A stretch of 64,000 nt of DNA from Candidatus Undinarchaeota archaeon (lineage in GTDB: Archaea; SpSt-1190; JASMDC01): contig CAZFHY010000003.1 in NCBI GenBank assembly GCA_964519305.1, positions 1 through 64,000 of the forward strand. Direction: 5' to 3'. The notes below the pieces were generated by a model. The model was not told the DNA's origin, did no database searches, and worked only from the letters and a program-made list of their open reading frames with translations. Numbering within the stretch: position 1 is the stretch's first letter; each line of letters opens with the position of its first letter. Positions 12,242 to 63,468 of this stretch are shown here, in pieces. The translations under genes were made by a program, and so were the position numbers.

Positions 12242-15200
12242 CTAGTACCTGACCGTGGAGTTGGAGTACTGGCCGTAATAGGAGCCCATGGGCGCAGCGG
12301 GCTTCGGGGGGCGTCGCCGTGAGAACAGTAGAGCTGCCATGGGGATGAGGACCACCGCGGCCAGGATACCTACGATGAGGACGCCGCTCCATGAGATGCT
12401 CCAGCTTTCGCCTTCCTCGGGTGGTGGTGTGGGTGTTGAGCTCGGACGGTTCCATGCGGCCAGGATTCCGTTCGTATCGAGCCGGGCATGGAGCTTGTCC
12501 ATGTCACGTCCTGCCCGTTCGAGGGCGTACTCAGCATCGGACTGGCGCCCGGCATCTATGTGAGCGCGCACCTCATCGAGCACCTCCCTGATCGCATCCG
12601 CCTCCTCATCAAGAGCGTCGAGTTTCTCCCTGTTGACGGTCTCTGCGTGCCGCGCGCTCTCCAGAGCGCTCACCGCGTCCTTCACCTTCCGGGATATGGT
12701 GGCCACACGCGCCGTGACCACCTGCAAGGGTACGTCGGACGATACCCTGACCGTGAGGTTCGTCGAAGTGACGACATCTCCTTCCATCATCAAGGTCAAG
12801 GGAACTAGGACCTCACCCGTCGTGTCAGCGATATCAACGGTAACGACGACCTGAGATGCGTTCCCCGGAGCAATTGTCAGATTGAGGGGTGTGATGGTCG
12901 TTCCGTTCCGATCTGCGACGAGCGTGCAGTTAGCCCATCCATCCGTCGGATTCCGGACCGTCACGGTGGCACTTGCGGGCCCCGGTGGGCTCGCATCGAT
13001 GGTCGAGTTTGTTGGTAGCTCCAGTACGAGAAGCTTATCGCAGGGGCAGTCCTGTGGACATGTTTGGCAATCTTCACCTGCCCCACATGCACCGTCACCA
13101 CAGACGATCTCGGCACTGCTCACGGTAATGTCCAGGTACGCGGTCACCATCTGGACACCGCCCGTCACATCGATGGCCACTACATGAGTACCACCGGGTG
13201 CATCGTGAGGGATGGAAACGCGACCGAGGACCATGCGTTGGACACCGGCGGGGATGGATAGTCTACTGACGTCGAGGATGACCCATGGGGCAGCAGTTCC
13301 TGCCTTGAGAAGAGTCAGCGCGGCCTTGGCATCGCCTTCACCTTCATTGAGCACCGGAAAGTAGAAGGTGACCATCGATTCAGGATCGCCCGATATCGCG
13401 ATACGTGGTTGGGGGAGGCTGAGAGGGGAGGGTCCAGTGTCCTCCACGTTAACAGTAAGTGGCACCTTCGCCAATACATCACCGGAGCTCTCTTTTGCCA
13501 GGACCACTTCACCCTTCCCGCTCACAGCGCTGTTGGCCTTTAGCGTGAGCATGACGCTGCTCTCCATTCCGGGCTGGACCAGGAGGCGGGAAGGCAATAC
13601 CTCGATAGTGGATGGATGCTTGACCTCCATGACGGCTGCAAAGTAGGCGGACTTGCTGAGGCTCGATATGGTAAGGACCTCGGTCCCTTCACCCTCCTCG
13701 GCCGATAGCGTCACCGCCTCGGGCTCTATGAGGAAGCAGCCCCCACAATCATCCGGGCATAGCTCGCACGTCTCACCCGCATCACACGTCCCATCGCCGC
13801 ACGGGGGTGGTGCGCACCCGTACAGGTCGGCGTCCGCTGCTCCCGTCTGACATCTGAGCGGTGGTGTGCAGGTGCACTCCTCGCTCGTAGAGCAGTCCTC
13901 GCCTATACGCGGGCTGCACGTGCCGTCACCGGCGCATGTCTCAGCACTGCAGTCAGGGCACCCCGCATCGCACTCCCCACGGTCGATGTCACATACCTTG
14001 TTCCCGCAGGCGGGATTGTAGCATCCCATCCAGTCAACACCGGCCTCACCCGACCTGCAGACCAGTCCGCTGGAACAGAGGCAGTCTGCAGATGTCGTGC
14101 AGTTCTCGCCGACGATGGGGCTGCACGCGCCGTCACCGATACACGTCGTTGCGTTACAATCGACAGCGCACCCGGAGAGGCATTCTCCTGCCGTCTTGTT
14201 ACAGACACCGTCCCCACACGATACACGGACGCAGCCGGTCGTGTCCCGCAGGGGATCTGAGATGCTGCAATGCATCCCGCCAGGACAGACGCAGTCACCG
14301 GAGCTCGCACAGCTCTCGCCGATGGCTGTTGAGCAGGAGCCGTCACCGATACAGGTTGCGAGAGAGCAGTCGCTGCACCCGTCCGCACACTCTCCGGCCT
14401 CGCACCGCTGGTTCCCGCAGAAAGGATCGCGACAGGTGAGGTTCCCGTCACACCAGCGTCCCGTCCCGCAATCTTCGTCGTCAAGACAGTCATGCCATAC
14501 TCCTTCCAGACAGTACTCGCGCTCTTCTCCGAGCAGTGTGCTCTCCCCAGACGGGTAGAAACTGCCTGCGTTAAGACATGACCCTTGGAGGCCGCACAGG
14601 CCGGTCCCGTTCCTCTCCTGCGCGCACCATTCAGAGAAGCACGCTCCATGGTGGTCGCATACCGCACCATGGGCGAGTTGAGGGATCCATGCCGTGTCGT
14701 TGCACCAGTGGTCCGCTGCCCGGCCAAAGAGCGGGTAGCAGGTGGCGTTGAAGACGCATTGCGTCGCGCAGCAGTAGCGTCCGTCACCGTCGACGTCGTC
14801 CACGCACTGGTTGCTCTTGCACTCATAGTCCTTGGCGCACTCGGACGCGGTAAAATACCGCCAGGACCCGCTCTCGCAGTACCGGTCCTCGATCTGGCTC
14901 CCCTCGGGCATGCAAGTATCCGCATGGGGGCACCCTGGTGACGCGCAGCAGACGCTCCCCTCGTCCGAAGAGGCGCAAGTGTCACCCTGGCACTGGAAGT
15001 AGTGATGGCACGGGGATCCCTCCTCCCGCTTCGGTTCCCAAGAGCCGGTTACGTTGCAGAATAGTCCGGTGGCCTGACCGAATGTAGGGGAGCATATGCC
15101 ATCGTACACACAGTCGCGAGGACAGCACACACCCTTCCCCGTGACCACGTCCTCAGCACAGAGGCCGGCGGTACATTCCCAGTCCGCGGTGCAGGTAGCG

Positions 15201-16018: not shown

Positions 16019-16074
16019 GGTCCCTCTTAAGCATTAAAACAATAAATAGCCTAGCCCGGATCTTTCGAGACCCT

Positions 16075-19000
16075 CTAGGCGTACCGCGTACCGTAGTATG
16101 AGGGTGATTCCTTGCCTGTCACTAGGTCCACAAGCTCATCGGCTAGGGCCTCGGCGGTCTCCTTGGTCCCTGCAAGACAGGTGATGGTGATGCTGACACC
16201 CAGGACGCCACGTTTCCCGTGTACCTTGACCGCAACGGTTTCGCCCGTCGTTCCCTCGCGACCGATGTAGCCCTCGTCAACACGTTCACCGGGCCTCCTA
16301 TGAGCGAACGCTTTTGCGAGCGGAGTGCAGACATGTTTGACGCTCTCGAGCACTGACCGCATCCCACCTTTGACCGAGAGGGAACGAGTGGTCCCGATGA
16401 GCCCTGAAGTGGCCTCCTCGAAAGCCTCCTCGTCCATGGTGAGAGGACTGATCAGGGGCAGGACGCTGGCCACGGACACAGGAGCTGCCCGCTCGGTCGT
16501 GGGTTTGCCCCCGCGGCGGTAGTTGATAATGGCCCCGACCGTCGAGCGTGCGGGTGTGAGAGGGCTGACGTAGAGCATGCTCATATGGTAGCCGTCAGCA
16601 GGGATGGTCCCTACTGCTTCTTGGAGTGAGACGCCCGGAGGTGGTGCGAGTTCGCCGGGGAGCTCGAACTCGATAACCACATCGAGCATAGGAGTATGTC
16701 CCGCGTTACGTGCCGTGGCCGTGAGCGCCGTGTAGCCCGCTTGCCGTGAGATGGAAAGAGCGAGTGTACTAGGACCGCGCTTGAACCGATGCCTGACAGT
16801 GGCACCGATGAGCGAGAGGACCATCAGCACTGCGATCCATGGGACGATCATCTTGATGGTAGAGAGAGCACCGCCTGCCGTGGACGTCCCCCATCCGCCC
16901 CCCCCTCCCGGCGTGATCGACAGTTCCCTGCACTGGGAACCAGGGAGCTTGAGGAAGGTGATACGCGATGCCTTGACGTCATCCTGTGAGACCTTCTTCT
17001 GGACCGAGAAGGAGAGGTCGACCTTACTACCGCTCTTGAGACGGTCGACGCTCCAGAGAACGACGGGATCGTTGACCACCACCCGGACGTCCTGCCTGAA
17101 TGTGACACTGCTAACGGACGCTGCAAGTTCTTTGGGGATGAGCTGGAGGACGCAGAAGTCCTCTTCGTCTTCGGTGCCGGTGTTCTCCACAGAAAGCGTG
17201 ACCACGGTCGCGATCTTTGGCTCACCGGTCCCATCGGCCGTTTGGAGCGCGACCTCCATGACATGGCCCTTTATCACGACGCCCATCCGCTCGCGCACGG
17301 CCTTCGAGGCAGTGACAACCCCGTCGACGATCTTTTCAGCGGTCTCTCCAAGAGATCTCTCGATGTCGAACAGCTCGAGCACCGATGGTATGGCGACCTC
17401 CTCGGGCTCAATCTGAGGAGTGAAGGACGACTTGGACACGGTGTTGACCGCCACATCAATGGCAAGGCGCTCCGTGATTATGCCTTGCACACGCTGGACA
17501 GTCTCCTCCACGCCCGTCACATCCCCTTCGCCCAGACGGCGCCAAGCGCTCTGGAGATGACGCTCCAATCCTGGAGGTGGTGTATTGCTCACGGCCATCT
17601 GGACGAGAAGACGCTCCTGGAACAGGGGAGAGGACACCTTTCGCTCCACATCGAGCAGGTCCTCGCAGGCCTCGTCACACCCGTCAGGTCTTCCTGCACA
17701 GACCGCAGCGCATCCCATCTCTTCGGCGAGGTCATGGATGGCAGCGGCCACTGGATCGGCCGGGACGCTCGATGGAATGGAGGATTGGTCCAGGTCGATA
17801 CCTTCGGTTATGAGCTCACCACCAGTATCGGTCCCCGGGATAATCGTCCCGTTGGGCCCTGTGGCGCTCGCTGTGGGTCCGGGCACGGTGGTTGGCACCA
17901 TCGTCGGGACCATGGACGCAACCATTGTGGGCATTAGGGTGGGCAGGAGCGTGATGCTGCCATCGGGAAGGGACGTGGGTGACGAAGTGGGGACCGTGGT
18001 CGGCATGAGGGTGGGTACTAGGGTCGTGACCATAGTGGGGGCCGGAGCAGTTGAGGGTGTTACCGGGATCTCATTACTTGCAGCTTGTTCGATATCGTCC
18101 GTGAGCGCGTCCACGCTCCCGAGAATACGCTCCATGCGTTGGAAGACGGGGAGCGTCCCTGTTCCGGATTCATCCTCATCAAGTTCTTGGAGCGCATTGC
18201 GTAATCGAGCCAGTAGCTCGGCGACTGTATCTTCGTCGAGAAGACCATCCCGACCCAGAGCTTCCACCCGCTCGATAAGGGCTTCGAGCCGTGCACGGGC
18301 AACGGCGGGGGCGACACGTCCCACTTCCTCAAGGGCAGCGTTAACTCGTCCTTGTTCCAATAATGCACGCGCTCTGCTCAACCTCATGTGGATCTCGGTC
18401 GCCTTTTCAGCTGTGATGAGACCCTTTTCCTCAGCAGTCTGGACGTCCTCGCGAAGGGTCTGGATCCATTCCCGAACCGATGACACCAGGTCCTCTGGAG
18501 AAAGTGTCGGGCCCGTACCGCCCGTGGGCGTTGGTGCCGGTGTGGGAGCAGAGGTGCGCTCAGCCTCGGCCACCTTGGCGAGGATCACTTCGATGGCCTC
18601 GATGGTGGCCGCCTGGCGGGCGATGACCTGTTCCAGATCGGCAGTCCCCGTTACGATATCACCCTCCTCGATGGCACGGAGCGTTTCCATCAGTCGTTCG
18701 AGGAGGTCGGCGAGGACCGCTTTATCGATTCTCCCCTCCCTGCCCAATGCCTCCAGACGCTGGATTAGCGCTTCCACCCGAGCTCGGGCCACGTCACGTG
18801 AGATGGTGTCAGCGATCATGAGCGCCTCGTCCTCGCGACCTGCATCGATCAGGTCGAGCGCCTCTTGGAGGCGATGTCGTAGTCGTTGGGCCACCTCGGT
18901 CGTGATCTCACCAGTACCCTCGGCACGTCCGATCTCCATCCATAGCGCGAGGATCCAGTCCTTTGTGGTCGTGGGCCGAACAGCCGTGGGTTGTACTGTA

Positions 19001-22589: not shown

Positions 22590-24713
22590 TTGGTGACCCA
22601 TAATTTATTGAGGACGTACGGGAACGGTTCGGGGTATAGTGGGATCTGTTCACGACAACTCTGGACGTTTGCTACGACCGTCATTCTCCTCATCGCCACG
22701 GCGACCGCTCTTCCCCAGTGCACCGGTCATGAATGGTCGGTACAGTGGATGGCAGGTATGTTCCTTGACGACGACCATGGGTTCCTTTTTCCTGAGGACC
22801 CGCTCATGGACGTGGCCTACAAGCGGATGGATGTCACTGTTGAGGTGAACATCCGTATCACGGACAGAGAGGCGTGCTCCCCGCGGACGTTCAAGCTGGA
22901 AGTATTGCCCGCACCGGAGGTAGAGCATGGGCTTTGTCAATCCCTGACGCCGTCTCCCATCGTCTTCTCCGTTGGCAAGGATTATGAGACCGGTAGCGGG
23001 AAGTACACGGCCGTTGTGGACATCAAGACGGGATTCCGTACGGGGACCTGTTCACTCCTCTTCACGCTCAAGAACGGAGCTAGCGAGACCAAGCGGCTCG
23101 ATATCCCCGTGGAGCTATCACCGGGCGACTGTGCCCAAGAACCTGACCTGGCCGTCATCGGACAGGCCCGCGACGACCAGCGAATAGCCGTACAACGGCC
23201 CGACCTCTTGGGGCTGTGTGAACCTGGGAGACGGTCGGAGAACGGAGTCTGCTGTCCGGAGGGCGATGTCTGCTGTCTTGACGACAGCCAGTGCGCACCC
23301 TTCGGAAGATGTGTATTCTTGGATGCGGATGCTGGCGAACGGGTCAGCTCGCTCTTCATACCGGCACGTTGCGATATGAATCGGAACGTCTGCGTACTAC
23401 CTCCTGCCGACGGATGGATCACATGCGACGCGTCCAAGGGTGAGATCTGTAGTGAGGGTGCACGGGGTTGTACGAACCTGGACGTCTCGGGGAGCGAGCT
23501 CGCCATTTTGGACACGACGCTCCGCCCCCTCTGGTTCAACCGGTACCCCAGAAAGATGCATATCCCAGTCACGGTGACGGTCGTCAACAGAACGCTCCAT
23601 CGCATTCAGGACGCCACGGTAATCGCACGGTTCGAGGGCAAGAGCCACATGCTCAACACCACTTCGGACGGGCAGTTCACCGCATCGATCGAACCCAAGG
23701 GAATTGGTGGGAACTACCTAATCCTGGCAGCCCGGAAGGATGAGACCTTAGCAAAAGGGGTCACCTACATATCCATGGCAGCGAGGCTGGACCTCAAGTT
23801 CGATGTGGAGACCACCGGCCCGGGAATCTACACGATCGAACATCGCGCCACTGATGCCAACAATCATAGCGTACCGGACACGAAGGTCCATGCGTTCCTT
23901 GACGGAAAAGCACTGGAGCTGCCTGCCGACGGAGTGCTCCAAATTCCTGACAGCACCGGTTTCCACCTACTTCGCGTGTGTGTCAGTCGGGAACACTTCA
24001 CACCATTTCTATCCTGCGCCGAAGGTGACTTCTGCTGTCGTTCACGCTATCTGATGCCCTTCGATTCATTGAGACCGCTCACCCTTTCAGCAGATGCGAC
24101 CGGGGCTATGCTCCTATCACGGGGGGGTGTCGCGACCCTTCCCCTCACATTACGGAACGAAGGCGCCACACCGCTTGACATAACCATGGACATCATCACG
24201 CCTCCGGGAACACCAAAGGGCATTGCCAAGGTCGGTACCGTCCCCTCTTTCCTTCCCGCGGGGGGTGAATCACGGTTCGCGCTCAATGTGGCCATCCCGG
24301 ATGGATTTCCCTGCCGCGAGATACCTTTGACGGTCCGTGTGAGCTCCGGTGACCTCGCCGTCGGCCTGCCCCTCATCGTTGATGTCAAATGTGATATCGC
24401 GAACATAGGGCTTGAGCTTGCAGAGAATGGGCGGGTGCTGGACGAACTGGACAGGCGCGCGAAGACGCTCCCCAAAGCAAGGCTCGCATTGACAGCAGCA
24501 CGTATGGCCTACATACAGGCCGTTTATGAGGCCGGGCTGGGACGGATCGACCGGGCTACTGCATTGAACGCTACGGCACTTACCTTCATGGGGGATGCCC
24601 TGGGCGTGCTCACGGAGGCAGGTGCAGCGCCGAGAGAGGTCAACACGACGGTCCTTGCCATGTTCCTCTCGGCGATCCTCATCGCTACAATCGTCTTAAT
24701 ACGTGAGGGGTGA
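22590..24713 (+). CDS. Single-pass surface protein, paralog of the C-terminal stalk of the giant protein at 37263
   Basis: Signal-like LWTFATTVILLIATATA; ENGVCCPEGDVCC and LRVCVSREHF...CCR match segments of the giant; C-terminal TM VLAMFLSAILIATIVLI. Start position uncertain. Confidence 0.82.
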   Translation: MVTHNLLRTYGNGSGYSGICSRQLWTFATTVILLIATATALPQCTGHEWSVQWMAGMFLDDDHGFLFPEDPLMDVAYKRMDVTVEVNIRITDREACSPRTFKLEVLPAPEVEHGLCQSLTPSPIVFSVGKDYETGSGKYTAVVDIKTGFRTGTCSLLFTLKNGASETKRLDIPVELSPGDCAQEPDLAVIGQARDDQRIAVQRPDLLGLCEPGRRSENGVCCPEGDVCCLDDSQCAPFGRCVFLDADAGERVSSLFIPARCDMNRNVCVLPPADGWITCDASKGEICSEGARGCTNLDVSGSELAILDTTLRPLWFNRYPRKMHIPVTVTVVNRTLHRIQDATVIARFEGKSHMLNTTSDGQFTASIEPKGIGGNYLILAARKDETLAKGVTYISMAARLDLKFDVETTGPGIYTIEHRATDANNHSVPDTKVHAFLDGKALELPADGVLQIPDSTGFHLLRVCVSREHFTPFLSCAEGDFCCRSRYLMPFDSLRPLTLSADATGAMLLSRGGVATLPLTLRNEGATPLDITMDIITPPGTPKGIAKVGTVPSFLPAGGESRFALNVAIPDGFPCREIPLTVRVSSGDLAVGLPLIVDVKCDIANIGLELAENGRVLDELDRRAKTLPKARLALTAARMAYIQAVYEAGLGRIDRATALNATALTFMGDALGVLTEAGAAPREVNTTVLAMFLSAILIATIVLIREG

Positions 24714-25957
24714 TCGTCGTTACTAAAGGCGATGATGAGCCGGATAGCTTGAAGGACGACCACCATGAGTCATCGCCTGACGAGCCTGTCGACCGTAGGG
24801 ATTTCATCAAGAAAGGTCTCATCTACGGAGGAGGGTTCTGCCTCTCTACGGCCATGATCAAGATGCTACTGGATACTGGCACCGTGGGTTCCCTCAATAC
24901 ACAGGATATCCCCGGTCTTTCGTCAAGAGGTCCCGGGCATGAGGTCATGCTAAAAGAGGCCCGTTGGGGAACACCAGGGCCTGACGACTTCGTTCAATGC
25001 GGACTGTGCCCGAACCTATGCAACCTCGCCCCCGACGGACGTGGTATCTGTCGCACGCGGTTGAACAAGGGTGGAAGGCTCTATACACTGGCATATGGCA
25101 ATCCCTGCTCTGTCGCCCAGGATCCAATGCAACAGGCGCCTTTCTATCACTTCAAGCCCGGCACCACGACGCTCTCCCTTGCGGTCGCGGGATGCAACTT
25201 CCGATGCCTCAACTGCCAGAACTGGGAGATATCGCAGAAAGGCCCGGACGAGACCGATAACGAGCTGCTCTCTCCCCTCCAGGCCGTGGAGAACGCAAAG
25301 GCACTAGGAGTCTCTGCCATCACCTTCACCTACACCGATCCGGCGGTGCTCTTCGAGTACGTCTATGATGTGTTCAAGGTGGCGCGTGCTGCGGGTCTCG
25401 CTACACTACTGAAGTCGAACGGGTACATCAATCCCGAACCTCTGGAGGAGCTCATTCCAGTGACCTCCGGGGCCAGCATCGACGTCAAGGGTTTCACCGA
25501 TAAGTTCTACGAGGAGGTGTGCGGCGGGACGCTCCAGCCCGTGCTCGACACATGTGAGCTGCTCAAGGAAAAGGGCGTCTGGTTGGAGATACCCAACCTC
25601 GTCGTTCCGACATTCTCCGATGATATGGACATGATACGTGACATGGCTAGATGGATTGTGGAGAGCCTCGGCCCCGACGTACCGCTCCACTTCATGCGGT
25701 TCATGCCCGAATACAAGCTCGACACGCTCCCCTTGACATCGCTAATGACCCTTACCAAGGCACGCAACACTGCACTCGCGGAAGGACTCAACTACGTCTA
25801 TATCGGGAACGTGCCCGGAGCGAGCATTGCCGACACGGTCTGCCCGAAATGTGGTGTCACAGTCGTGGAACGTGAGGGTGTAGAGGTAATCAAGAACCTC
25901 ATGAACAGCAGTAAGTGCCCATTCTGCGGGGAGATCATCCCTGGGGTGTGGACCTGA
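24710..25957 (+). CDS. amrS: AmmeMemoRadiSam-type radical SAM enzyme with twin-arginine signal
   Basis: VQCGLCPNLC...GICRTR; YGNPC...DP...PFYHFKPG; GCNFRCLNCQNWEISQ; PLHFMRFMPEYKL; GLNYVYIGNV; CPKCG and CPFCG; N-terminal DRRDFIK plus hydrophobic stretch. GTGA overlap with the upstream gene. Confidence 0.9.
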   Translation: MIVVTKGDDEPDSLKDDHHESSPDEPVDRRDFIKKGLIYGGGFCLSTAMIKMLLDTGTVGSLNTQDIPGLSSRGPGHEVMLKEARWGTPGPDDFVQCGLCPNLCNLAPDGRGICRTRLNKGGRLYTLAYGNPCSVAQDPMQQAPFYHFKPGTTTLSLAVAGCNFRCLNCQNWEISQKGPDETDNELLSPLQAVENAKALGVSAITFTYTDPAVLFEYVYDVFKVARAAGLATLLKSNGYINPEPLEELIPVTSGASIDVKGFTDKFYEEVCGGTLQPVLDTCELLKEKGVWLEIPNLVVPTFSDDMDMIRDMARWIVESLGPDVPLHFMRFMPEYKLDTLPLTSLMTLTKARNTALAEGLNYVYIGNVPGASIADTVCPKCGVTVVEREGVEVIKNLMNSSKCPFCGEIIPGVWT

Positions 25958-27539
25958 AGGCCCCTAAAGGACGCGTATTGTACTCCGCTTGATACTCCAG
26001 ATGTCTCTCATCGGACGGGTAGCCCTCTCCTGCTGGAGGCGGGTACGTGGACATGTTGTGGAACGGGAGTGGTGCTACCGTATCGTACGCTGGTGATTCC
26101 TCGTACAACTCCTTGAAGAACAGGTTCGCCCTTACCATGAATGTGCGCACCGAACCATCGGCCAAAGGCGGAAGGTCGCCTGCGTCGAAGGAGACCGCTA
26201 CCTCGTCACCAGGGCCCATGATGGCGAACAAGTCATCCCCGGGGACCATGAGAGAGAGCACATCACCGTACCGTGTCAGGTCACCCGCTACAGCAGGGAC
26301 CTCCGGCCCCTGCCAGTCACTCTGGTAATCAAACACCGGGAACGGGCCCTTGAGGGGCAACGGTGAGGGGAAGCCGCGGTATCCGAGCTTGGCCTTGACC
26401 GGTGACAGTTCAGTGACCACGGTGGATGCGGATGGTAGTCGTTTAGTGACGAGCACACGATCCCAATACACAACGAGTCCTGTAAGGATACGAACCCTGG
26501 TGTCATCAGGATCTACAACTCCCGTGAGGTCGAGGGTGACCGTCTTTGGAGGGAGACCTGCGGGGAAGGGGGCGTTCTCCATCACGGTCCGCCATCCTCC
26601 CTGGCCGTCGGGGACCTGGACCGTGGGCAGGACCATCCGTATACCATCGTTCCACGCCGGGATGGTGGAGTAGGCCTGTGGGTAACGCGTTCCGCCTGTG
26701 AGGAGGATGAGCACACGGTCTGCGTTCGTCACGTCACCAACGTCAACGATCAGAGCATGTGGTTCCGCGAATCCCTCGTATGGCATGATCTCGACTGGGG
26801 CGTACCGTCCGTCAACTGCCTCAAGCATTGGTGACAGGTCCCGTCCGGAATCATCGGTCACGGCGACAGGTGACCGCAGGTCGTCCGCGAGCACGATGCC
26901 ATCGGGAAGATAGGGGGGGAACATCCGGACGCCCTCGATAGGGAAGGCCGACGTGCCCTCGGGGTGGTCGACGGCAACGAGTTCGATTCCGTCGAGGAAG
27001 GTGATCTCAGCGAGCTGCTCCACTATGCGGAGCTCGAAGGTCCCGTCGCGCTCGTGCGGGAGGCCAGGCGGCAGGAGGATCCATTCCACTGGATCTTGGA
27101 ACTTCGTCAGGTCAGGTGTGAGGGGGAAGCCCACAACACCGTTGCCGACCATATCGGTGACGAAGGTGAAATCCTCGCCGTCCGAGGCGTACAGTATGGG
27201 ACAGGAAGACTTCACCGGGATCCCAGGGCAGCTGCAGTCGTCGAGACACTCCCCGGGGCAGAGCTCCGCGTCCGTACCGTCGCACCGCTCCGTGACATTG
27301 TCGTCATTGGGCCCTTGGACAGCACCGTCGCCGCAGTAGCCGGCGCATACGCAGCGTTCCGGATCGATGGTCGAGTCCATATCGCATGCAACGCAGTCGC
27401 CAAGGTCCGAGCCATCGCATGCCTCCCTGGCCTCGCGCACACCGTTCCCGCATGCACCTTGGCCTACATCCGTGCGTTCACCGATGCATCCGGCAACAAG
27501 GGCCAGGGCCATGATGAGGGCGATGGCACGACGCACCAT
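25935..27539 (-). CDS. Lipoprotein with Myxococcales-type Cys repeats and a C-terminal SCP-x-L(Y/F) domain like that of bacterial ASPIC/CRTAC1-associated proteins
   Basis: Lipobox MVRRAIALIMALALVAGC; CGNGVRE..EACDG and CGDGAVQ...ERCDG; SSCPILYASDGEDFTFVTD...TRYGDV...GDEV...PLPFHNMSTYP...YQAEYNTR. Confidence 0.8.
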   Translation of the reverse strand: MVRRAIALIMALALVAGCIGERTDVGQGACGNGVREAREACDGSDLGDCVACDMDSTIDPERCVCAGYCGDGAVQGPNDDNVTERCDGTDAELCPGECLDDCSCPGIPVKSSCPILYASDGEDFTFVTDMVGNGVVGFPLTPDLTKFQDPVEWILLPPGLPHERDGTFELRIVEQLAEITFLDGIELVAVDHPEGTSAFPIEGVRMFPPYLPDGIVLADDLRSPVAVTDDSGRDLSPMLEAVDGRYAPVEIMPYEGFAEPHALIVDVGDVTNADRVLILLTGGTRYPQAYSTIPAWNDGIRMVLPTVQVPDGQGGWRTVMENAPFPAGLPPKTVTLDLTGVVDPDDTRVRILTGLVVYWDRVLVTKRLPSASTVVTELSPVKAKLGYRGFPSPLPLKGPFPVFDYQSDWQGPEVPAVAGDLTRYGDVLSLMVPGDDLFAIMGPGDEVAVSFDAGDLPPLADGSVRTFMVRANLFFKELYEESPAYDTVAPLPFHNMSTYPPPAGEGYPSDERHLEYQAEYNTRPLGAFRSTPQG

Positions 27540-27557
27540 GCCCATGAACGGCGAGCG

Positions 27558-27570
27558 TATATTATATAAT
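27558..27570. promoter_or_regulatory. Bidirectional TATA element between the divergent lipoprotein and flippase-like genes
   Basis: TATATTATATAAT lies in the 64-bp gap between starts 27539 (-) and 27604 (+). Confidence 0.6.
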
Positions 27571-27603
27571 TGGATGTCGTGCACCATAGGATAGGCGAAT
27601 CCC

Positions 27604-28575
27604 GTGGACGACGATGACGGAGTGGATGACGCGAAAGGATCGGTCGAGAATGATTCCCGACATCCCGGTGCCTTCGTGCGGACCCTGCTTACGGTACTCG
27701 TTATAGGCGTCGTGCTATCTTCCATCGACCTCGGTGTATTCACCGGTCCCGGACTGCGGATACGGGGGCTCCATCTGGGGATCGCCTGTATCCTTGCACC
27801 GGTATTCCTCCTCCTCAAGGCGTCCAAGTGGCACATCCTCGCCAGGACGGTGCGGGACGTGGGCTTCAAAGAGAGCGTCCGGTCCTTCATGGTGGGTATG
27901 AGCATTGGTATACTGACACCTGGCAGGGTGGGCGAGGTGGCCCGGGCCAGCCAGTTCGAGGGTGACAGGGGTAAGATGGTCACTCTTGTGGCTCTTGACA
28001 AAGCCATGGACGTATTCGTGGTGGTGGTCCTAGGGATCGTGTTCGGTCTATCTATCGTACCCCCGGCGCTCACAGCAGCCTACGTTGTAGTGGCCGCACT
28101 GGCCCTGGCGTTCATGGCTCGACCATATACGGCCGTGATCCGCTCCGCCGCCGCACTTGAGCGACTCCCGTGGGTAGGCGATGGCACGCTCCCGGGGGAT
28201 GTCAAGGGAGCGGCCGTGTCCCCCTCGACGCTCGCACTGCTCAAGGCGCTCGTTCTGACTGTTCTGGCCTATTGCACGGTGATGGTCCAGTTCCATTTCC
28301 TTCTCCTGGGCTTCGGGGCCATCCTCGGTCTCGGGACGACGCTCGCTGTCCTTCCTATAGTAGTGCTGGTGAAGTCCGTACCCATCACCATCGCTTCCCT
28401 GGGAGTACGCGAGGGGACCGCTATGGTCGCTTTCGGACCGTACGGTGTCAAGCCTGAGGTCGCCGTTGCCGCGGCGTTCGCCTCCTTCCTCGCCACGACC
28501 GCGGTGGCCGCGCTCGGAGGGCTGACGGTCGTATGGGCTGATCGCCCTGAGAATGACGAGCCCGGCCCTCGATAA
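27604..28575 (+). CDS. Lysylphosphatidylglycerol-synthase TM-domain / flippase-like membrane protein (UPF0104)
   Basis: LKASKW; GILTPGRVGEVARA; DKAMD; PITIASLGVREG motifs; multiple TM helices. Confidence 0.88.
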   Translation: MDDDDGVDDAKGSVENDSRHPGAFVRTLLTVLVIGVVLSSIDLGVFTGPGLRIRGLHLGIACILAPVFLLLKASKWHILARTVRDVGFKESVRSFMVGMSIGILTPGRVGEVARASQFEGDRGKMVTLVALDKAMDVFVVVVLGIVFGLSIVPPALTAAYVVVAALALAFMARPYTAVIRSAAALERLPWVGDGTLPGDVKGAAVSPSTLALLKALVLTVLAYCTVMVQFHFLLLGFGAILGLGTTLAVLPIVVLVKSVPITIASLGVREGTAMVAFGPYGVKPEVAVAAAFASFLATTAVAALGGLTVVWADRPENDEPGPR

Positions 28576-28610
28576 CCTTTTATTAAACAACAGAACGTAA
28601 CATCGAACGA

Positions 28611-30077: not shown

Positions 30078-30754
30078 TCTCGATCATAGTCCCCATTTGG
30101 GACGAAGTAGAATCCCTCCCGCATCTCAAAGGGGAGGTCATGGCCCAAGATATCAGCGACAAGATCGAGCTCATACTGGTCGATGACGGGAGCACCGATG
30201 GTAGCGCCGAGGCTATGGACGAGATGGCACTTGAGGACGAGCGGATAGTCCCGGTCCATCTCGGAGCGCATCGTGGGAAGTCGGCCGCATACACTGCTGG
30301 GTTCAAACATGCTCGTGGTGATATCCTGGTCACGCTCGACGGTGATCTTCAGGACGATCCGGCCGACATCCCCCTTCTCATCGACAAGCTGGACAACGAT
30401 CATGACGCGGTCATCGGCTGGCGACGCGAACGTTGTCATCCTTATCTCTCGAAAGTAGTGCCTTCGCGGTTGTTCAACCTCCTCGTCGGTATCGTGTTCC
30501 GTCTCAGGCTCCATGATACGAACTGCCCGGTCCGCGCGGTCCGTGCACGGTTCGTTCATGACCTAGAGCTCGCACAAGGTGAGCACAGATATCTCCCTGT
30601 CCTCTTGGCCATTCGCGGCGCCCGCCTGGAGGAGGTCTCTGTATCCCATCGACCGCGCAAGTACGGTGAACCCAAGTACGGCTCTCCGTTCAGGCTCGCA
30701 GAAGGGATTGCCTGCCTTATCCGGCTCTGGCTTTGGGGTGAGCGCCGTGGTTGA
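30074..30754 (+). CDS. GT2 glycosyltransferase (polyprenol-phosphate sugar synthase, ArnC/DPM-like)
   Basis: ISIIVP; VDDGSTDGS; GKSAA; LDGDLQDDP; LHDTNC; HRYLP; HRPRKYG. Confidence 0.92.
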   Translation: MISIIVPIWDEVESLPHLKGEVMAQDISDKIELILVDDGSTDGSAEAMDEMALEDERIVPVHLGAHRGKSAAYTAGFKHARGDILVTLDGDLQDDPADIPLLIDKLDNDHDAVIGWRRERCHPYLSKVVPSRLFNLLVGIVFRLRLHDTNCPVRAVRARFVHDLELAQGEHRYLPVLLAIRGARLEEVSVSHRPRKYGEPKYGSPFRLAEGIACLIRLWLWGERRG

Positions 30755-36865: not shown

Positions 36866-37262
36866 TCCTGCAGACTTGACCGCATGTCGACAATAGGTAG
36901 GTGCGAATTGTGTCCTCTATTGGTGCCGTACTCCCAGTAAACGTCCTAATTCGGTCTCTTAACTACTGATGCGTCTTGATATCATGAACGGGAGCACCTA
37001 TCTAGGGCTGAAATCATGCGCAACGACGTGCAACGACTAACAACCACCCTTGAACCGGACCCGGGGATTGGCGTTTTTAATGAAACATTGCGGGAAAAAT
37101 CCATTTATATGGTTGCAGCCTACTGCTTTGAGAAGGGGAGATTGTATATTCACAGGACGGGAGGGGCAAAGGTGTATCTCTTTGGGTCGATGATATACCC
37201 AAAGGAGGACGCCTCTCTTCATGCGATGTGATGTCTCTCATTCAAAATTGGAGGATTCGAAC

Positions 37263-47201: not shown

Positions 47202-47227
47202 AAGGTTCTTGAAGTGATACGCCCGAT

Positions 47228-55400: not shown

Positions 55401-57620
55401 GGCTTCTGCTGTGCGGAATCATGCCTTGCACTCGTTCCGGGCCTGATCGATAGTGTACCGGCTGGAGCTTGCGGAGAGGGGCCGTGCGGCGGTGCTCTGA
55501 GCTGCATTGGAGGCACATGGACCTGCTCTTCGATCAATCGAACCTGTTGCACAAGGGACTGGCGAGGGATATGCTCCTTCTCTGGAGTGTGCGATGCGCA
55601 TGAGTCCTGCGATGACCGATGTGAGACCGATCTCGCCATCGCACGGGCATGTGACAAGGGTAGCTGCGTGGAGACGGGACGCCAGAACTGCACCTCGGAC
55701 TTCAAGTTCTGCCGGGAGGGAGCATGCTCGGGCTGCCTTACCGATCCCGAGTGCAGGTTGTTCAATAAGTGCGAGGATACGGTCCACATCGGTTACTCAT
55801 GCTTCGGGGGCACGTGCAATCCCCGTGAACAGGATTGTCGATACAATGCCCTGATCTGTCAACCTGGCGGCTGCACAGGGTGCACGACCGACGAGGAATG
55901 TTCGAAGCTTTATGGTCCCGAGATTACCTGCGACTCGCTACGCCATCGTTGCCGTTCGCTCAACTGCGCGGTGGACGACGACTGCACCAACCTATGTAAT
56001 GAGAACACACACATCGAGTACCTCTGTCATGACTTCATGTGCAAGCGCGGTGACGAGGTACCGTGCACGGGGGGAAAAGTATGTTCTCTCGTAGGCTGTA
56101 GTGACTGCCATCGGGACCGTGACTGTGTAATCCATTATGGAATGGACTTCACCTGTCGCGACGGTGTATGCCGGAGGTCATGTGGTGATGGCCGCTGTGA
56201 ACCTACTAGCGGCGAGGACTGTGTCCGGTGCCCCGTTGACTGCATCTGCAACGCAGCCGTGCTATGCGATCCGTCGTCGATGATGACGGACGAGATGGGT
56301 TGTGTGGCGGACTCAGATGCGGACCGATTCCCTGATGACCAGGATCCTGACGTAAAGACCGAGGGTGAACCCTGTCTCAGACCGGACGACTGTCATGCCG
56401 TATGTCGACGCGGCGAAGCGGTATCGCGCGCATGTATCGGAGGATTCTGCGAGGTAATCGAGTACGACCTCTGTCACGAACGCGACCAGATGTGCGACGA
56501 CGGTGAATGTACTCCTTGCACTGGTGACGATGGCTGCCGTGCGATCTACGGACCGCTCTACGTTTGCGCGGATAAACTCTGCCGTCGTGATATCGATGGT
56601 GACGGCGTCCATGATGATGCTGATGGCTGTCAGCGCGATCCCCTCCGCACCGAGGGGTGCGAATGGAACGAGACCTGCAAGACCGGGACCCGGGACTGCA
56701 GGACATCTTCAGCATGCACCTGTGATGAGGGAAAGGTCTGCGATCCCTTCCGGCCGAAGGCCGATGATCGTGGATGCGTGACTCCTAGATGTGGTGACGA
56801 AATCTGTGACCGGCCGCATGAACGTGGGCTGACGTGTTGTACGGACTGTGGCTGTCTGCGTGGTGAGCTGTGTGACGAGCGCACTGATGTGTGCATGGCC
56901 GGTTGCGGTGACGGAACGTGCGTTCCTGTTGAGTGCGGCTACTGTGTGCTCGACTGTTCGCCCGGTACGTGTCGTAACGATGTATGTGACCGCGCAATCG
57001 GGGAGACCGCAGAGAACACACCCGACTGTAACAGCTCTGTGGAGATCCACGCCCTTCTCCGCCATGAGGTGGCGGAGGCTGAAGCGATCGAACTCCCTCT
57101 CCAGATCAGGAACACGGGGAACGTCCCTACGAGCTTCACGGTCCACCTCAAGGCAGAGAACGCTCGTCTCGGGCTGCGTGAGGTGGCCACTCCGGTAATC
57201 CCGGCGGGCAAATCACACGGATTCATGCTCAACCTCCAGCTCACGTCCGGTTCGGGTCCAGCAACGGTGGAGGTCCGGGCCGTGTCGGACAAGGATCCGT
57301 CCGTGAACGCCGTCCAGACCGTAGTAGTGGAACAGTCCACAATTTCCTATCTATCCCGGGCGCTAAGTGGATCTATCCTCACAGAACTACCACGGAACCA
57401 GATGGTGGTGGCTATCGTCGTCGGGACCTTCCTTGCGCTCTGGGCTTTGGTCGTTGTCCTCGTACTCCTTGTCAAGGTCGGCACCCGAACACGCCGTCCA
57501 AAACCGCTCACCGAGTACCCTGACGGCAATGCTTACGATTCTTACTATGCAGCCTCCAACAATCCATCTGGTGGAGGATACCCTTCTGCTGGCTACCGCA
57601 TGAATCAGGGACCTCAGTGA
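52404..57620 (+). CDS. Very Cys-rich single-pass surface protein (1738 aa) with Tyr-containing cytoplasmic tail
   Basis: Signal STFAFIILMIALIPATG; many CxxxxxCxSGxCxxGxC and CGDGxC repeats; DIDGDGVHDDAD; Ig-like domain; TM MVVAIVVGTFLALWALVVVLVLLV; tail ...AYDSYYAAS. Confidence 0.88.
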   Translation: MLTITKHHRKRDQGLWRSTFAFIILMIALIPATGLRTSCTASLTDGIPDPDATHAIVGGFHMIPHALCEEGKAYDGCCRHGEGLPCAPELVANSSCCVGDDRGVQREAVLVFELKEHRPFRAATITLVHACHPAETGGQCHAESPMVLNYCEGGSCSSSAVGCDDGTLSDADVTCTGSGTCTVLRTVDAAIEQAMQAGWDTVTFRVAPVSSTYVRTWPVPALCTSLGDACAAVTSAPATRLSLVYGEPGAPVLTIHDSCKAGTQCKPGEEWECVDLDDDGTGNCGECTDEPGAPCLDDNGRKGYCCGGQCATMGPVWADSDDDGRADSGIDPCGESDCTATLVCSSGSWSCGSTGEGCCTEEGLRSCDDTGTCTSGTPQDCGSDSCAAGACRTPCGVGGSCPSGHHCVNLEGILVCLKLCSSVGQCESGESCFDTNANGGPDACGPCAIDGVRCTGVDGTGYCCRGACVYTSIGDTNDDNKLAAGDTCGTTGCSGSPVCTISGTGPAWTCSTEGSSCCTNVGQGICSDLQCQNAVSCGAYACTDGGCTSSCDSPDDCASLDACIDVEGTHVPQTCGDCSEHEGSPCITSSGSTGLCCAGECRLGEGRGVTCGRDCHCTEDLACAEGLGVCLTGPGGACEENGDCASGCCAGGMCFQRGAGLLDDPCGADCECSDGLACGGGRCRRELGASCDGAFDCASGCCVHGSCIGSEKVLGGSPCLADCQCTQGFACHRSDPTDTTGVCLVATSKTCTSHYACVSGCCADGVCVDDRTLPVRDACTENCQCSESMACLDNICLVPLGGSCAAGNECELGVCVNETCVARGDKGLDDTCALENECADGLTCVNGICLFNLGKLATSSTQCASDCASGGVCIEPKSIIHLSLCNDPCACQQGLICNAIKGVCLRDVGGSCGAHSDCDRGCCADDKCAAAGVKEVGKSCTIDCECTSWVCAAGKCASARPCATAADCMVELERKLCVDGVCKARCEPEGLQCDGSNVTGFCCAESCLALVPGLIDSVPAGACGEGPCGGALSCIGGTWTCSSINRTCCTRDWRGICSFSGVCDAHESCDDRCETDLAIARACDKGSCVETGRQNCTSDFKFCREGACSGCLTDPECRLFNKCEDTVHIGYSCFGGTCNPREQDCRYNALICQPGGCTGCTTDEECSKLYGPEITCDSLRHRCRSLNCAVDDDCTNLCNENTHIEYLCHDFMCKRGDEVPCTGGKVCSLVGCSDCHRDRDCVIHYGMDFTCRDGVCRRSCGDGRCEPTSGEDCVRCPVDCICNAAVLCDPSSMMTDEMGCVADSDADRFPDDQDPDVKTEGEPCLRPDDCHAVCRRGEAVSRACIGGFCEVIEYDLCHERDQMCDDGECTPCTGDDGCRAIYGPLYVCADKLCRRDIDGDGVHDDADGCQRDPLRTEGCEWNETCKTGTRDCRTSSACTCDEGKVCDPFRPKADDRGCVTPRCGDEICDRPHERGLTCCTDCGCLRGELCDERTDVCMAGCGDGTCVPVECGYCVLDCSPGTCRNDVCDRAIGETAENTPDCNSSVEIHALLRHEVAEAEAIELPLQIRNTGNVPTSFTVHLKAENARLGLREVATPVIPAGKSHGFMLNLQLTSGSGPATVEVRAVSDKDPSVNAVQTVVVEQSTISYLSRALSGSILTELPRNQMVVAIVVGTFLALWALVVVLVLLVKVGTRTRRPKPLTEYPDGNAYDSYYAASNNPSGGGYPSAGYRMNQGPQ

Positions 57621-57633
57621 GGTCAGGTCATAT

Positions 57634-60012: not shown

Positions 60013-60116
60013 ACGGTCGATACACATGCCGGTGAGTATTAAATCTGTTCGCGCCGCGGACGGTCGATATAAAAGAGTTACTCGTACTTGGCTGAACGCC
60101 TGAAAGGTGATTTCAA

Positions 60117-60626: not shown

Positions 60627-60684
60627 GCGGACCCCGACCACGTAGTAATTAATTACTTGAGTGATGCTCTAATCCCCGTAGAGG

Positions 60685-63468
60685 ATGGAAGGTCGCTCGA
60701 CTGCTCAGGGATGGCTCTTGCTCGTAGTAGTCATCATGCTATTCCTCAATCCCGCTGCAGGCGTCCATTTCAAGCTCGCTGATGAGCGACATGACAACCA
60801 GGGTACTGAGTACACGGTCCGATACCCCATTCCTCTCAAGCGTACCAATGTTAGGATCGACAAGCTCGAGACCGTACACCTCGATTTCCCCGATGACCTC
60901 GTACAAGAGTCGTCCATACGTGTGGTAGAGCGCGTGAACGACACATTCTATGAGATCCCGTACCAAGTGGTCAAGCTAGGTGACGCCTCCACACTCTCCA
61001 AGTACGACTCAGGCTTCGTTAGCGCCATCGACCTGAAGTTGTTCCTCACAAACACTCCTGATAACAGCACTTCCTACTTCGTGCTCGTGTCACCTGAACC
61101 GACACGACGTACCGATTATAGTGGGAGTCACGGTGAAATGATACAGAGCGTAGCCCCGTACATCATCGTGAACAATGATCACCTTGAAGGTACGTTCACA
61201 GAGAACGGCCTCATGCTCAAGGACGCTGGTGGTACGATGCTCTCTGATGGGGACAAGTTCCAGGAGAGACGGACGGCGATGTTGCTCAAGGACCTCCCTT
61301 CACCTAACATAGTCCTCAAACCGCGCCTCTCCGTGGAGCCGACAGAGCTTGGAGTCCGGGTGTACGGGACAATGGTCATGCTCGGTTTCCAGCACACGGT
61401 CGAGTACACGTTCTACGGAACCGCTCCAGTGTTTGAGAGACAGGAGAGGTTCTCCATTCCCGTGGTCTCGGCCAATCTATGTTATGTTATCTTCAAGAGC
61501 CTGGACACCCTGAAACATAGATGGGACATCACGCTCTATCCCGATAACAAGTCATTCCACTTGGATGGGGACAGTAATGATCCCCGGTTCCTCACCGAGC
61601 ACATACCGGTCCAGCGGGGCCAGGTGATAGTCGCTTCGAGCGGTGACATATCTCTGGTGACGATCATCATCGATGTACCTGACTTTGAACTGAATATGGG
61701 ATTCCTCGAGGGGAGCGCGAAGATGTCCATCCCAGGTCTTGGTCTCAAGGACCTAGGCTCAATCCATTTTCCCAATACGATGTACCACGGGATGTACTTC
61801 ACGAACATCTCTCCGGACTATCATATCACCAACCAGTGCGGGGACATCGCAGGAGTGAGCTCGTACCGCCATATCACGTTCATTGTAGATGGTTCTGTAG
61901 ACAAGGCCATGGTCGACGAACTGCGTTCGCTCTATCTTGGTTCGATCCTTGAGGCGAGCGCCCAGTTCGAGGCTGAGTACTATTGGGATGGTGCTTGGCA
62001 ACATGAATCGAGACCTTGTGGTTCGTCGTGCTCATACGATGGGGAATGCGGGGACCGGAAGTGTATCAGCGGCCTCTGTCGGAAACCTACCGAGTGCGTC
62101 TTCGATAATACCTGCTTTCAGAGCGGGACCGAGCTGGAGAGCCGAATGTGCCTTGACGGGGAATGGCTCCAGACCCAGAACGGGTGCGGGCCCTGCGTGG
62201 TCACGGCACAGTGCCGGGGAGGCCGGCGATGCATCGACAACATCTGTCGGGAGAACAGCACCGTATGTGGAAAACAAGGTCGGTGCTTCCCATCTGGCTC
62301 GGTCTACAAGGACGAATATTGCGAGATGGGATTGTTCTTCAGACGGGCTGGTGGTGGTGCCGAGTGCGATCAGGATTACGAATGTGATACAGGTTATGCT
62401 TGCGAGGACAATCACTGTATCAAGAGCGATGGGATGACCTGTACCGATGATAGCGAGTGCAAGAGCAGACACTGCTCTCGTGGTATCTGCTGCGTTCAGG
62501 GTCGTCAGTGCTGCCGGGACGATGAGCAGTGCAAACCGCCAACGCGATGCAATCCCATTACCTTCTACTGCGAAGTGCTCTGCGGTAACGCGGTATGCGA
62601 TCCGGAGGAATGCAGTGACTGCCCGAGCGACTGCTCACTCGAGCTGTGCGCTGACGACCGGTACTGCTCGCCCGAGGTGGGTGAGACATGTGACACGACG
62701 ACCTACTGCGAATGCACGACCGTTGTGCGGGCATTGTTCGACTCGTCCAAGGACCACCGGTTCGATGACATCGTGTTCGTGGAGGCAGAGGTCCAGAACA
62801 TCGGTGATGCTCCAGCCACCTACGATGTTGCCTTCACGGTGAAAGAGCTGAACGTATTCGAGACTAGGAAGAGCGTTCAGATAGGGAAGAACAGCCTCGT
62901 TGTGCTTCCCTTCAACTTCACAGCAAGTGCGCCTTTCGAGACAGTTCACGTTTCCTTCACCGTGTTCTATGGCTCCGGGCGAAAGCGACCTGAGCACAGC
63001 GAGACCTTGACCGTTACCCTCAGGGAGCGCAGGTTCTACGAGACCACATACTTCGAGTACCTCTTCGGTTTCAAGGAAGCATTCGAGATAGTGGTGGCCA
63101 TAGTGACTGTGTTCGGTCTTTTCATGGGATACCGCTCTTGGGTGGGAAGGGGTGAAGCGGCCCCACCCGCCGTCGTATACTACTATTATCCACCTCCCTA
63201 CGAGAGCTATTATGGGCAGTATGGCTATTCATATCCACAGGACGCTTATCCGGTAGGATATGCCGAACAGAGTGAGGACGGCAGCAGCGAGGAGGCACCC
63301 TTACCGGTCGAAGCACCATCTGAAGAAGTACCCGCTCCTGTAGAGGATCCCGCCGCCTACGCCCAAGAGCAGCCTGCGGACCTTGAGCCCGTGCCTGTCG
63401 AACCCGTGGCCGAGGAGCAGTCGGTAGAGTACCAACCGGGGAACGACGGCGTCCCGCCCAGCGATTGA
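60685..63468 (+). CDS. Single-pass surface protein: DUF2341-like/beta-sandwich N-terminus, Cys-rich repeats, Ig-like domain, TM helix, Tyr/Pro/Glu-rich tail
   Basis: Signal WLLLVVVIMLFLNPAAG; SSIRVVE...EIPYQV; Cys modules shared with the 12242 protein; TM FEIVVAIVTVFGLFMGY; tail YYYYPPPYESYYGQYGY. Confidence 0.87.
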   Translation: MEGRSTAQGWLLLVVVIMLFLNPAAGVHFKLADERHDNQGTEYTVRYPIPLKRTNVRIDKLETVHLDFPDDLVQESSIRVVERVNDTFYEIPYQVVKLGDASTLSKYDSGFVSAIDLKLFLTNTPDNSTSYFVLVSPEPTRRTDYSGSHGEMIQSVAPYIIVNNDHLEGTFTENGLMLKDAGGTMLSDGDKFQERRTAMLLKDLPSPNIVLKPRLSVEPTELGVRVYGTMVMLGFQHTVEYTFYGTAPVFERQERFSIPVVSANLCYVIFKSLDTLKHRWDITLYPDNKSFHLDGDSNDPRFLTEHIPVQRGQVIVASSGDISLVTIIIDVPDFELNMGFLEGSAKMSIPGLGLKDLGSIHFPNTMYHGMYFTNISPDYHITNQCGDIAGVSSYRHITFIVDGSVDKAMVDELRSLYLGSILEASAQFEAEYYWDGAWQHESRPCGSSCSYDGECGDRKCISGLCRKPTECVFDNTCFQSGTELESRMCLDGEWLQTQNGCGPCVVTAQCRGGRRCIDNICRENSTVCGKQGRCFPSGSVYKDEYCEMGLFFRRAGGGAECDQDYECDTGYACEDNHCIKSDGMTCTDDSECKSRHCSRGICCVQGRQCCRDDEQCKPPTRCNPITFYCEVLCGNAVCDPEECSDCPSDCSLELCADDRYCSPEVGETCDTTTYCECTTVVRALFDSSKDHRFDDIVFVEAEVQNIGDAPATYDVAFTVKELNVFETRKSVQIGKNSLVVLPFNFTASAPFETVHVSFTVFYGSGRKRPEHSETLTVTLRERRFYETTYFEYLFGFKEAFEIVVAIVTVFGLFMGYRSWVGRGEAAPPAVVYYYYPPPYESYYGQYGYSYPQDAYPVGYAEQSEDGSSEEAPLPVEAPSEEVPAPVEDPAAYAQEQPADLEPVPVEPVAEEQSVEYQPGNDGVPPSD

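Follow-up and report, generated by a model that had tools for sequence, protein, structure and literature searches.

A four-residue word, SYY[GA] (Ser-Tyr-Tyr followed by Gly or Ala), recurs in the cytoplasmic tails of surface proteins in the genome of a Candidatus Undinarchaeota archaeon (G000), where it is specific in residue order, intracellular by topology, portable and under purifying selection. The stretch of DNA analysed, hereafter the window, comprises positions 1-64000 of contig C3 of this genome and encodes four such proteins (P0001 to P0004). The motif probably serves these proteins as a shared tag inside the cell, for docking or for clustering. More specifically, SYY[GA] may be the core of a lineage-specific short linear motif that acts as a docking tag in the disordered, Tyr/Gln/Gly-rich tails of at least 16 single-pass surface proteins, an interpretation whose chances are put somewhat below even. 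To our knowledge, almost nothing is known of communication between the surface proteins of archaea and the inside of the cell, and this is truest of the uncultured DPANN-type lineages, the biology of which is thought to depend on giant surface proteins.

P0001 (12242..16018, minus strand) is a type I surface protein of 1258 aa and 9.5% Cys, with a signal peptide and a Cys-rich ectodomain. Its membrane helix (12326-12382) is followed by a cytoplasmic tail of 27 aa (12245-12325) in which SYYGQY (12266-12283) lies 14 residues past the helix, with SRRRPPKP (12299-12322) in between. P0002 (16075..22371, minus strand) is a 2098-aa surface protein with a BNR/sialidase-like region and FIMAH-like repeats outside; directly past its membrane helix (16795-16851) lies a domain with a predicted adaptin/COPI ear-like structure (16120..16770; vide infra), and SYYG (16090..16101) is found in the disordered last 10 residues behind that domain (pLDDT 32). 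P0003 (52404..57620, plus strand) is a type I surface protein of 1738 aa and 12.8% Cys, with a membrane helix at 57414-57470 and a tail of 49 aa (57471-57617) that carries RRPKP at 57492-57506 and YDSYYAAS at 57534..57557 (SYYA core at 57540-57551). P0004 (60685..63468, plus strand), a surface protein of 927 aa with a membrane helix at 63070-63126, has a 113-aa tail with a Tyr-rich block, VVYYYYPPPYESYYGQYGYSYPQDAYP (63172..63252), around a SYYGQY core at 63205-63222. Each of the four proteins has one internal membrane helix, located by hydropathy scan, and three of them have an N-terminal signal-like helix. The tails are placed in the cytoplasm because basic residues (SRRRPPKP, TRTRRPKP) follow the internal helix.

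An earlier, sequence-only reading of the window had listed these four motif peptides, and all four are exactly where it put them, as are the codons that it quoted for the two SYYGQY copies. Its description of the motif as following the membrane helix holds for P0001, P0003 and P0004 but not for P0002, where the motif comes some 230 residues later; and although the four proteins do carry the motif, four was too narrow a scope, since 18 proteins of the genome have tail copies. The giant that had been described as lacking the motif (at 37263) indeed has none in its 8-residue tail; it is a 3326-aa protein encoded at 37221-47201. The basic element RR(R)P(P)KP reported directly past the membrane helix of two tails is likewise present, as SRRRPPKP in P0001 and RRPKP in P0003. 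A search for RRP{1,2}KP returned these two proteins alone among 2977 open reading frames (ORFs), so that nothing can be concluded from it; the more distant relative P0007 has RRPR where P0003 has RRPKP.

The genome-wide survey used a rough proteome made up of the longest ORFs that do not overlap, with a minimum of 80 aa (2977 ORFs, 93% of the DNA covered), from the 3.63 Mb assembly, which consists of 42 contigs with 59.6% GC and is 99.8% complete with 4.3% contamination. The rough proteome includes 156 ORFs of at least 900 aa, many of them Cys-rich, and has 2.1% Cys overall. Membrane helices and signal peptides were called by a Kyte-Doolittle window scan, with no dedicated topology predictor. 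Tails were defined beforehand as the 8-300 residues past the last predicted helix or the 35-150 residues before the first, and make up about 6% of all proteome residues. SYY[GA] occurs 22 times, compared with about 9 expected from residue frequencies, and 20 of the 22 copies fall in these membrane-flanking tails, on 18 proteins of which 16 have a single internal helix and two are multi-pass (one of the latter looks like a chance occurrence). When each of the 567 C-terminal tails was shuffled, the mean count was 0.81, compared with 16 observed; for the 288 N-terminal tails it was 0.29, compared with 4, and in neither case did any of 300 shuffles reach the observed number.

The sequence-only reading had asked for a comparison with Tyr-rich low-complexity sequence, and the motif stands well above that expectation. 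Shuffling inside the Tyr-rich tail segments (n = 143, 3452 aa; 18.3% Tyr, 9.6% Gly, 8.5% Gln, 5.9% Ser) gave a mean of 1.18 and a maximum of 6 copies, compared with 19 observed, and none of 2000 shuffles reached that number. With all 4-mers in these segments ranked, the top words are SYYA (10 vs 0.52 expected), SSYY (7 vs 0.31) and SYYG (9 vs 0.62), and the top 3-mer is SYY (26 vs 5.7). Residue order is specific: in tails, the permuted words [GA]YYS, YSY[GA] and SY[GA]Y occur once each and YYS[GA] twice, compared with 20 copies of SYY[GA]. The residue past SYY is Gly or Ala in 20 cases, Asp or Glu in two, Ser or Thr in one, and never Gln, Asn, Arg, Lys or Pro; the residue before YY[GA] is Ser in 20 cases, followed by Gly (5), Gln (5), Ala (4) and Thr (3). 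Phe versions before Gly or Ala are rare (SFF 1, SYF 0, SFY 1).

The 20 tail instances have the consensus Y(11/20)-x-S-Y-Y-[G 10/A 10]-[N/S/A/T/Q]-[Y 7/R 7], and 16 of the 18 proteins have a single copy. The motif is found both in C-terminal (type I) and in N-terminal (type II) tails, separated from the helix by 14-94 residues; P0002 and its paralogue on contig C4 have it at the end of a folded cytoplasmic domain, about 230 residues from the helix. Among the 142 C-anchored single-pass proteins, tails are enriched in Gln (2.3x) and Tyr (1.6x), and Tyr-rich segments are present in 36, compared with 85 of 1261 length-matched soluble C-termini; the corresponding counts are 17 vs 6 for YY[GA] and 9 vs 0 for SYY[GA].

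Selection on the protein rather than the DNA, as the sequence-only reading had proposed, is well supported. Across the motif copies, Ser is written with all six of its codons, Tyr with both and Gly/Ala with all eight, and the tails have no significant similarity to one another outside the motif region. Only three paralogue pairs exist among the 18 carriers: P0003 and a 1745-aa protein on contig C7 (38% identity), two neighboring type II proteins on contig C6, and P0002 and a 2468-aa protein on contig C4, which are related via the cytoplasmic domain only. Ten tail pairs, with 12 motif copies, could be compared codon by codon with G001 (3.8 Mb), the sole same-genus relative compared. Of 48 codons in the SYY[GA] core, 33 are identical, 15 differ synonymously and none non-synonymously, compared with 369 identical, 138 synonymous and 113 non-synonymous codons in the rest of the tails (Fisher's exact p = 2e-4).

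Conservation in orthologues, on which the earlier claim also depended, is likewise found. The G001 orthologues of the four window proteins and of the C7 protein all keep the motif, as do P0005 (90% identical), P0041 (82%) and P0043-46 (~84%), the last four having SYYG identical to that of P0002; such cases weigh little individually because the relatives are so close. The flanks are less constant. The G001 orthologue of P0001 keeps GSYYGQY with changed flanks (M to T, NS deleted), and the Tyr-rich block of P0004 is identical in its G001 orthologue, as is the part from PYESYYG on in P0005, with the acidic rest of the tail diverging in both. Three word-indexed homologue searches returned only close orthologues of 82-100% identity, and an exhaustive search gave 35 matches with one informative orthologue, P0007. 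This protein is 56% identical over the last 306 aa of P0003 and keeps YDSYYAAS at eight of eight positions, amid a preceding linker and a following tail that diverge and change in length. One word carried inside the cell by 18 proteins whose external regions are unrelated, constant amid drifting surroundings, is the expected look of a shared docking or clustering tag, and the proposal that it is a shared feature of intracellular tails on proteins with unrelated ectodomains is thereby borne out.

Beyond this genus, Tyr-rich tails are widespread in the class; the SYY[GA] word itself is a property of the genus with the large genomes, shared by at least one relative further away, P0007. All 15 same-class genomes that were searched measure 0.6-1.2 Mb, compared with 3.63 and 3.8 Mb for G000 and G001. 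Homologues of a juxtamembrane domain in seven small same-class genomes and in several other representatives have Tyr/Gly/Gln/Arg-rich tails that use other words, such as GYYG, YYR and terminal GYYRQFK. In G003, a complete same-class genome of 1.22 Mb, SYY[GA] occurs three times, compared with about 3.3 expected, and once in a tail; the word is therefore not class-wide. A DNA pattern for Y-x-S(TCN)-Y-Y-[GA], counted across 41 genomes, gave two matches in the 15 same-class genomes, compared with five for the control. The same pattern has seven sites in G000 and seven in G001, all seven paired (six by aligned loci, the seventh by sequence only); the G001 count is not above the six matches of the reversed-pattern control, and is thus informative only as a match to the G000 sites. 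No description of the SYY[GA] motif or of Tyr-rich tails of archaeal surface proteins was found in the literature on archaeal and DPANN tails, archaeal prion-like domains and Asgard appendages.

If the motif is a docking tag, a common folded cytoplasmic partner would read Y-x-S-Y-Y-[G/A]-x-[Y/R], and docking would tie many different surface proteins to one sub-membrane structure, for purposes of positioning, clustering or turnover. One candidate for such a partner lies within the window. The 239 cytoplasmic residues of P0002, aligned with five paralogues and orthologues, gave an AlphaFold2 model (pLDDT 81.9, pTM 0.67) with an Ig-like sandwich (strands 9-117) followed by an alpha/beta platform (helix/strand 122-225), in the order and packing of an ear domain. 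The top 16 Foldseek matches in the PDB are all appendages of COPI gamma/beta, AP2 alpha or AP2 beta2, with E values down to 4e-11, TM scores of 0.47-0.61 and 230-256 aligned columns across both lobes; 1w80, 2vj0 and 9ppp are among the fold matches, with BBSome subunits lower in the list. At the level of sequence, Pfam appendage models gave at best E = 0.14 (PF02883), in two of six family members and not for P0002, and a profile search of PDB sequences returned no appendage match. The cytoplasmic domain of P0002 is thus predicted, from its modelled structure, to fold like an adaptin/COPI ear.

G000 encodes 10 copies of the ear-like family and G001 encodes 11; a search of 105 other archaeal genomes turned up full-length copies in just two, and the 15 same-class genomes yielded none. 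In every anchored copy the domain directly follows the membrane helix, and one copy is a 247-aa ORF without a predicted helix. A Tyr motif follows three of the 10 copies (SYYGTRY, SSYYANRYYG and GYYARAK). The SYYG of P0002 aligns with SSYYANRY of the C4 paralogue, in the same place past the last helix, and three other paralogues are without the motif. In one ear-bearing protein (contig C1, 112271-114628) the tail, of 78 residues, contains GYYARAK and AGRYP repeats and closes with an acidic stretch, ...EEEDADIFGDEGL, which is conserved in its G001 counterpart (G001 contig C40); the acidic-plus-Phe character of this end recalls eukaryotic ear-binding motifs.

Eukaryotic ears bind short aromatic motifs in disordered tails (DP[FW], FxDxF and WxxF). 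By this analogy, and because ears and motif have expanded together in the same genus, the membrane-tethered ear-like family can be named as a candidate reader of SYY[GA], an unlikely one on present evidence, co-expansion within a single lineage being weak evidence. The likeness lies in short aromatic words in disordered cytoplasmic segments of many unrelated proteins, in a genome that also holds 10 domains of the predicted two-lobed ear fold. Unlike the eukaryotic ligands, the word has Tyr rather than Phe or Trp and no fixed acidic residue, and its carriers are cargo-like surface proteins, not soluble accessory factors. The ears themselves, unlike eukaryotic ones, are tails of surface proteins and thereby tethered to the membrane, and the Pfam Snf7 and Vps4_C models detected no coat or ESCRT genes. 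A slightly less probable extension, again by analogy, is that Y-x-S-Y-Y-[G/A] tails are ligands of these ears, which would wire dozens of giant surface proteins into a sub-membrane network by the logic of eukaryotic coat adaptors.

Regions of Ig-plus-TBP "adaptin appendage" architecture are already on record for archaea, where a role as cargo-interaction hubs in ESCRT systems has been proposed for them (Makarova et al. 2024, PMC11188069), and the P0002 ear is therefore a further member of a known archaeal kind. In the eukaryotic appendage, as outlined in the pertinent passages of PMC3597702, the platform is TBP-like in fold and the domain is a protein-interaction hub. The predicted fold of the P0002 domain has the same two subdomains as the archaeal appendages presented in passages of PMC11188069, one of which is likewise joined to an outside domain via a transmembrane linker. 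Those passages place the archaeal appendages in Methanobacteriales, Halobacteriales and Asgard loci beside Vps4/ESCRT genes (the supplements may list more lineages) and propose no ligand motif for them. The ears described here differ from these in lying next to the membrane as the tails of giant surface proteins, and the DPANN-affiliated genome that encodes them gave no match to Snf7 or Vps4_C.

Two other candidate readers were considered. A three-helix module of about 35 residues (xYIxxxxxxGYTxDEIxxxLxxxGYxxxxV), RecX/UBA-like in appearance, was detected by jackhmmer in 18 copies on 17 proteins, including those at C6:102107-104184, C15:93580-94779 and C2:170536-173424 and 14 others; Pfam gave sub-threshold matches only (RecX_HTH1, E = 0.033; UBA, E = 0.0083). 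SYYA occurs in the same tail as this module in three proteins and directly abuts its first helix in two. A complex prediction for the module with the P0003 tail scored 0.02, which is evidence neither way. The window also encodes, at 32769-35321, a WD40 protein that was considered as a motif reader and dropped, because with six N-terminal membrane helices its propeller may not be cytoplasmic.

Of the alternatives to a docking tag, the strongest is that the tails are aromatic stickers without a reader, i.e. short FUS-like, prion-like segments in which weak self- and cross-association, driven by Tyr with small neighbors ([S/G]-Y-Y-[G/A]), clusters the proteins in the plane of the membrane. This is a real, if tentative, possibility. 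The Gln and Tyr enrichment of the C-anchored tails and their excess of Tyr-rich segments (36/142 vs 85/1261) fit it, as do the additional YYG, YGQ or GYG words in many tails and the Tyr/Gly/Gln/Arg-rich tails with GYYG or YYR in same-class relatives. The tails resemble the [G/S]Y[G/S] repeats of FUS and LARKS segments: as in FUS-type low-complexity domains, Tyr sits next to small residues in Gln/Gly/Ser-rich disorder and is the conserved element. Composition fits a FUS-like character, but the segments are of modest length and include charged residues, and most have the word only once. Most tails hold one copy in 27-66 residues, with far fewer stickers than known phase-separating domains, and even across the full range of 27-135 residues there are one or two copies, on membrane-anchored proteins. 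Nor is a YY doublet with strict Ser before and Gly or Ala after the FUS pattern; Gly (9.6%) and Gln (8.5%) outnumber Ser (5.9%) in the Tyr-rich segments, yet each precedes YY[GA] only five times, compared with 20 times for Ser. In two proteins, moreover, the motif is a lone appendix to a folded domain.

Several observations weigh against a read docking tag. Outside the core, 54 of 55 tail Tyr are unchanged between G000 and G001, so that conservation is not confined to the motif Tyr, and the other core residues taken alone fall short of significance: Ser is conserved at 12/12 core positions vs 26/35 others (p = 0.09) and Gly/Ala at 12/12 vs 115/145 (p = 0.12). By this measure a general aromatic sticker fits as well as a read motif, and the comparison comes from one genome pair that is 83-92% identical in the compared proteins. 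Since same-class relatives have Tyr-rich tails without the word, SYY[GA] may be one lineage's flavor of a looser property. Two models of ears with their tails leave the tails disordered (pLDDT ~30) with no self-docking, although the motif lies too near the last helix for these to be informative. The Pfam models Snf7 and Vps4_C found no match in G000, a weak negative given that no control genome scored above the cut-off of the Snf7 model; G000 thus offers no evident sign of the ESCRT setting that has been proposed for ears of archaea. Finally, the topology of the tails depends on a simple hydropathy scan.

A read docking word and a reader-less sticker fit the data about equally well, and the balance leans slightly to the docking word. 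The lean comes from its single-copy occurrence, its strict order and flanks where competing residues are commoner, its presence in both orientations and at varied distances from the membrane, and its appearance on a bare 10-residue extension of a folded domain. The conservation of all tail Tyr and the looser Tyr-rich tails of relatives carry the weight on the side of the sticker.

An improbable third explanation is that the motif is a membrane-interface or biogenesis signal, with a Tyr/Arg-rich segment that folds onto the inner leaflet or is read in insertion, sorting or degradation. Tyr and Arg favor membrane interfaces, many tails have Tyr/Arg-rich ends (e.g. ...VRY, ...GRY, ...YYR, ...YGRR), and Tyr at positions -2, +1, +2 and +5 could line the same side of a short helix. 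A distance from the helix that ranges from 14 to about 230 residues, in both orientations, is difficult to reconcile with such a role, as are the placement of the motif behind a folded domain of 230 aa in both P0002 and its paralogue and its presence in just 9 of 142 C-anchored single-pass tails. The pattern also departs from that of known kinds of sorting signal. Like the eukaryotic YxxPhi and NPxY signals, SYY[GA] contains Tyr and resides in cytoplasmic tails of single-pass membrane proteins, but unlike them it has no bulky aliphatic residue at +3 and no NPxY: in the 20 instances the +3 residue is N, S, A, T, Q or R from the first Tyr, and Y (7), R (7) or another residue (6) from the second. 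Archaeosortase-type signals (PGF-CTERM etc.) have a signature motif just before a C-terminal membrane helix that is followed by a short basic tail, and SYY[GA] lies instead past the helix on its basic side, or in N-terminal tails. Three other giants (C3:107607-115820, C9:34553-41434 and C13:15364-19380) do have TAPGxG at the C-terminus, followed by a hydrophobic helix and a final RR(R)D/E, an arrangement that resembles archaeosortase-type C-terminal sorting signals; they are an anchoring class apart from the SYY-tail proteins.

It is very unlikely that SYY[GA] is a site of Tyr phosphorylation or another Tyr modification that switches tail interactions. Two adjacent, exposed and conserved Tyr in a disordered cytoplasmic segment would suit such a role, and G000 has two LMW-phosphatase-family genes, but members of the LMWPc family can also be arsenate reductases. 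Phosphorylation gains no support from the genome, in which the sole Pkinase-family match in 3.63 Mb (C1:592061-592381) is to a 248-aa ORF and covers profile positions 42-147 only. The residues around the core conserve neither an acidic nor any other kinase-type context. That the motif is functionless, a by-product of low-complexity composition, shared tail ancestry or a DNA-level repeat, is just as improbable: the tails are compositionally biased and three paralogue pairs exist among the 18 carriers, but local shuffles (1.18 vs 19), permuted words (1-2 vs 20), diverse codons from both Ser codon boxes, a core with 0 non-synonymous vs 15 synonymous changes and the dissimilarity of the tails beyond the motif region all speak against it.

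SYY[GA] defines a synthesizable peptide that could be used as bait, and with ten membrane-tethered ear-like domains in the same genome, the idea that archaeal ears read aromatic tail motifs is cheaply testable. If true, SYY[GA] would be the first ligand motif for archaeal ear domains, and such reading would bear on the proposed archaeal roots of the eukaryotic cargo-sorting machinery.

Other surface proteins of the genome have shared features of their own. Sixteen giants (1081-2846 aa) share a C-terminal Cys-rich knot (C..C...CEL.VD...C......C.C.C), and 18 proteins have ...NPGxW... at the C-terminus; these measure about 913-976 aa, apart from one of 678 and one of 1032. Members of the two sets are often adjacent, as at C19:1070-7414 and 7418-10249, C15:34330-39027 with 31568-34426, and C10:95501-99457 with 92564-95494, and look like a multi-copy gene pair. 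The giants at C11:61164-73556 (4130 aa) and C6:40292-47788 (2498 aa), and also P0008, have GLHPG words behind YYG-repeat tails; both giants end in ...G(L/F)H(S/G)FHP or ...YRGFHP, a second shared tail element.

Within the window, the genes between those of the giants (24710-35321) code for three radical SAM enzymes, of which one is B12-binding, and for a GT2 glycosyltransferase; the 850-aa WD40 protein, whose C-terminal propeller comes after six membrane helices, belongs to the same cluster. Together with a PMT_2-like mannosyltransferase gene at 10372-12231, these may be surface-glycan or modification genes. A TFB/TBP pair at 7316-8948, which marks the source as an archaeon, has as neighbors two adjoining ORFs at 9044-10482 (minus strand) that consist of homing-endonuclease-associated HNH_repeat units (E = 4.9e-57 and 1.8e-16).

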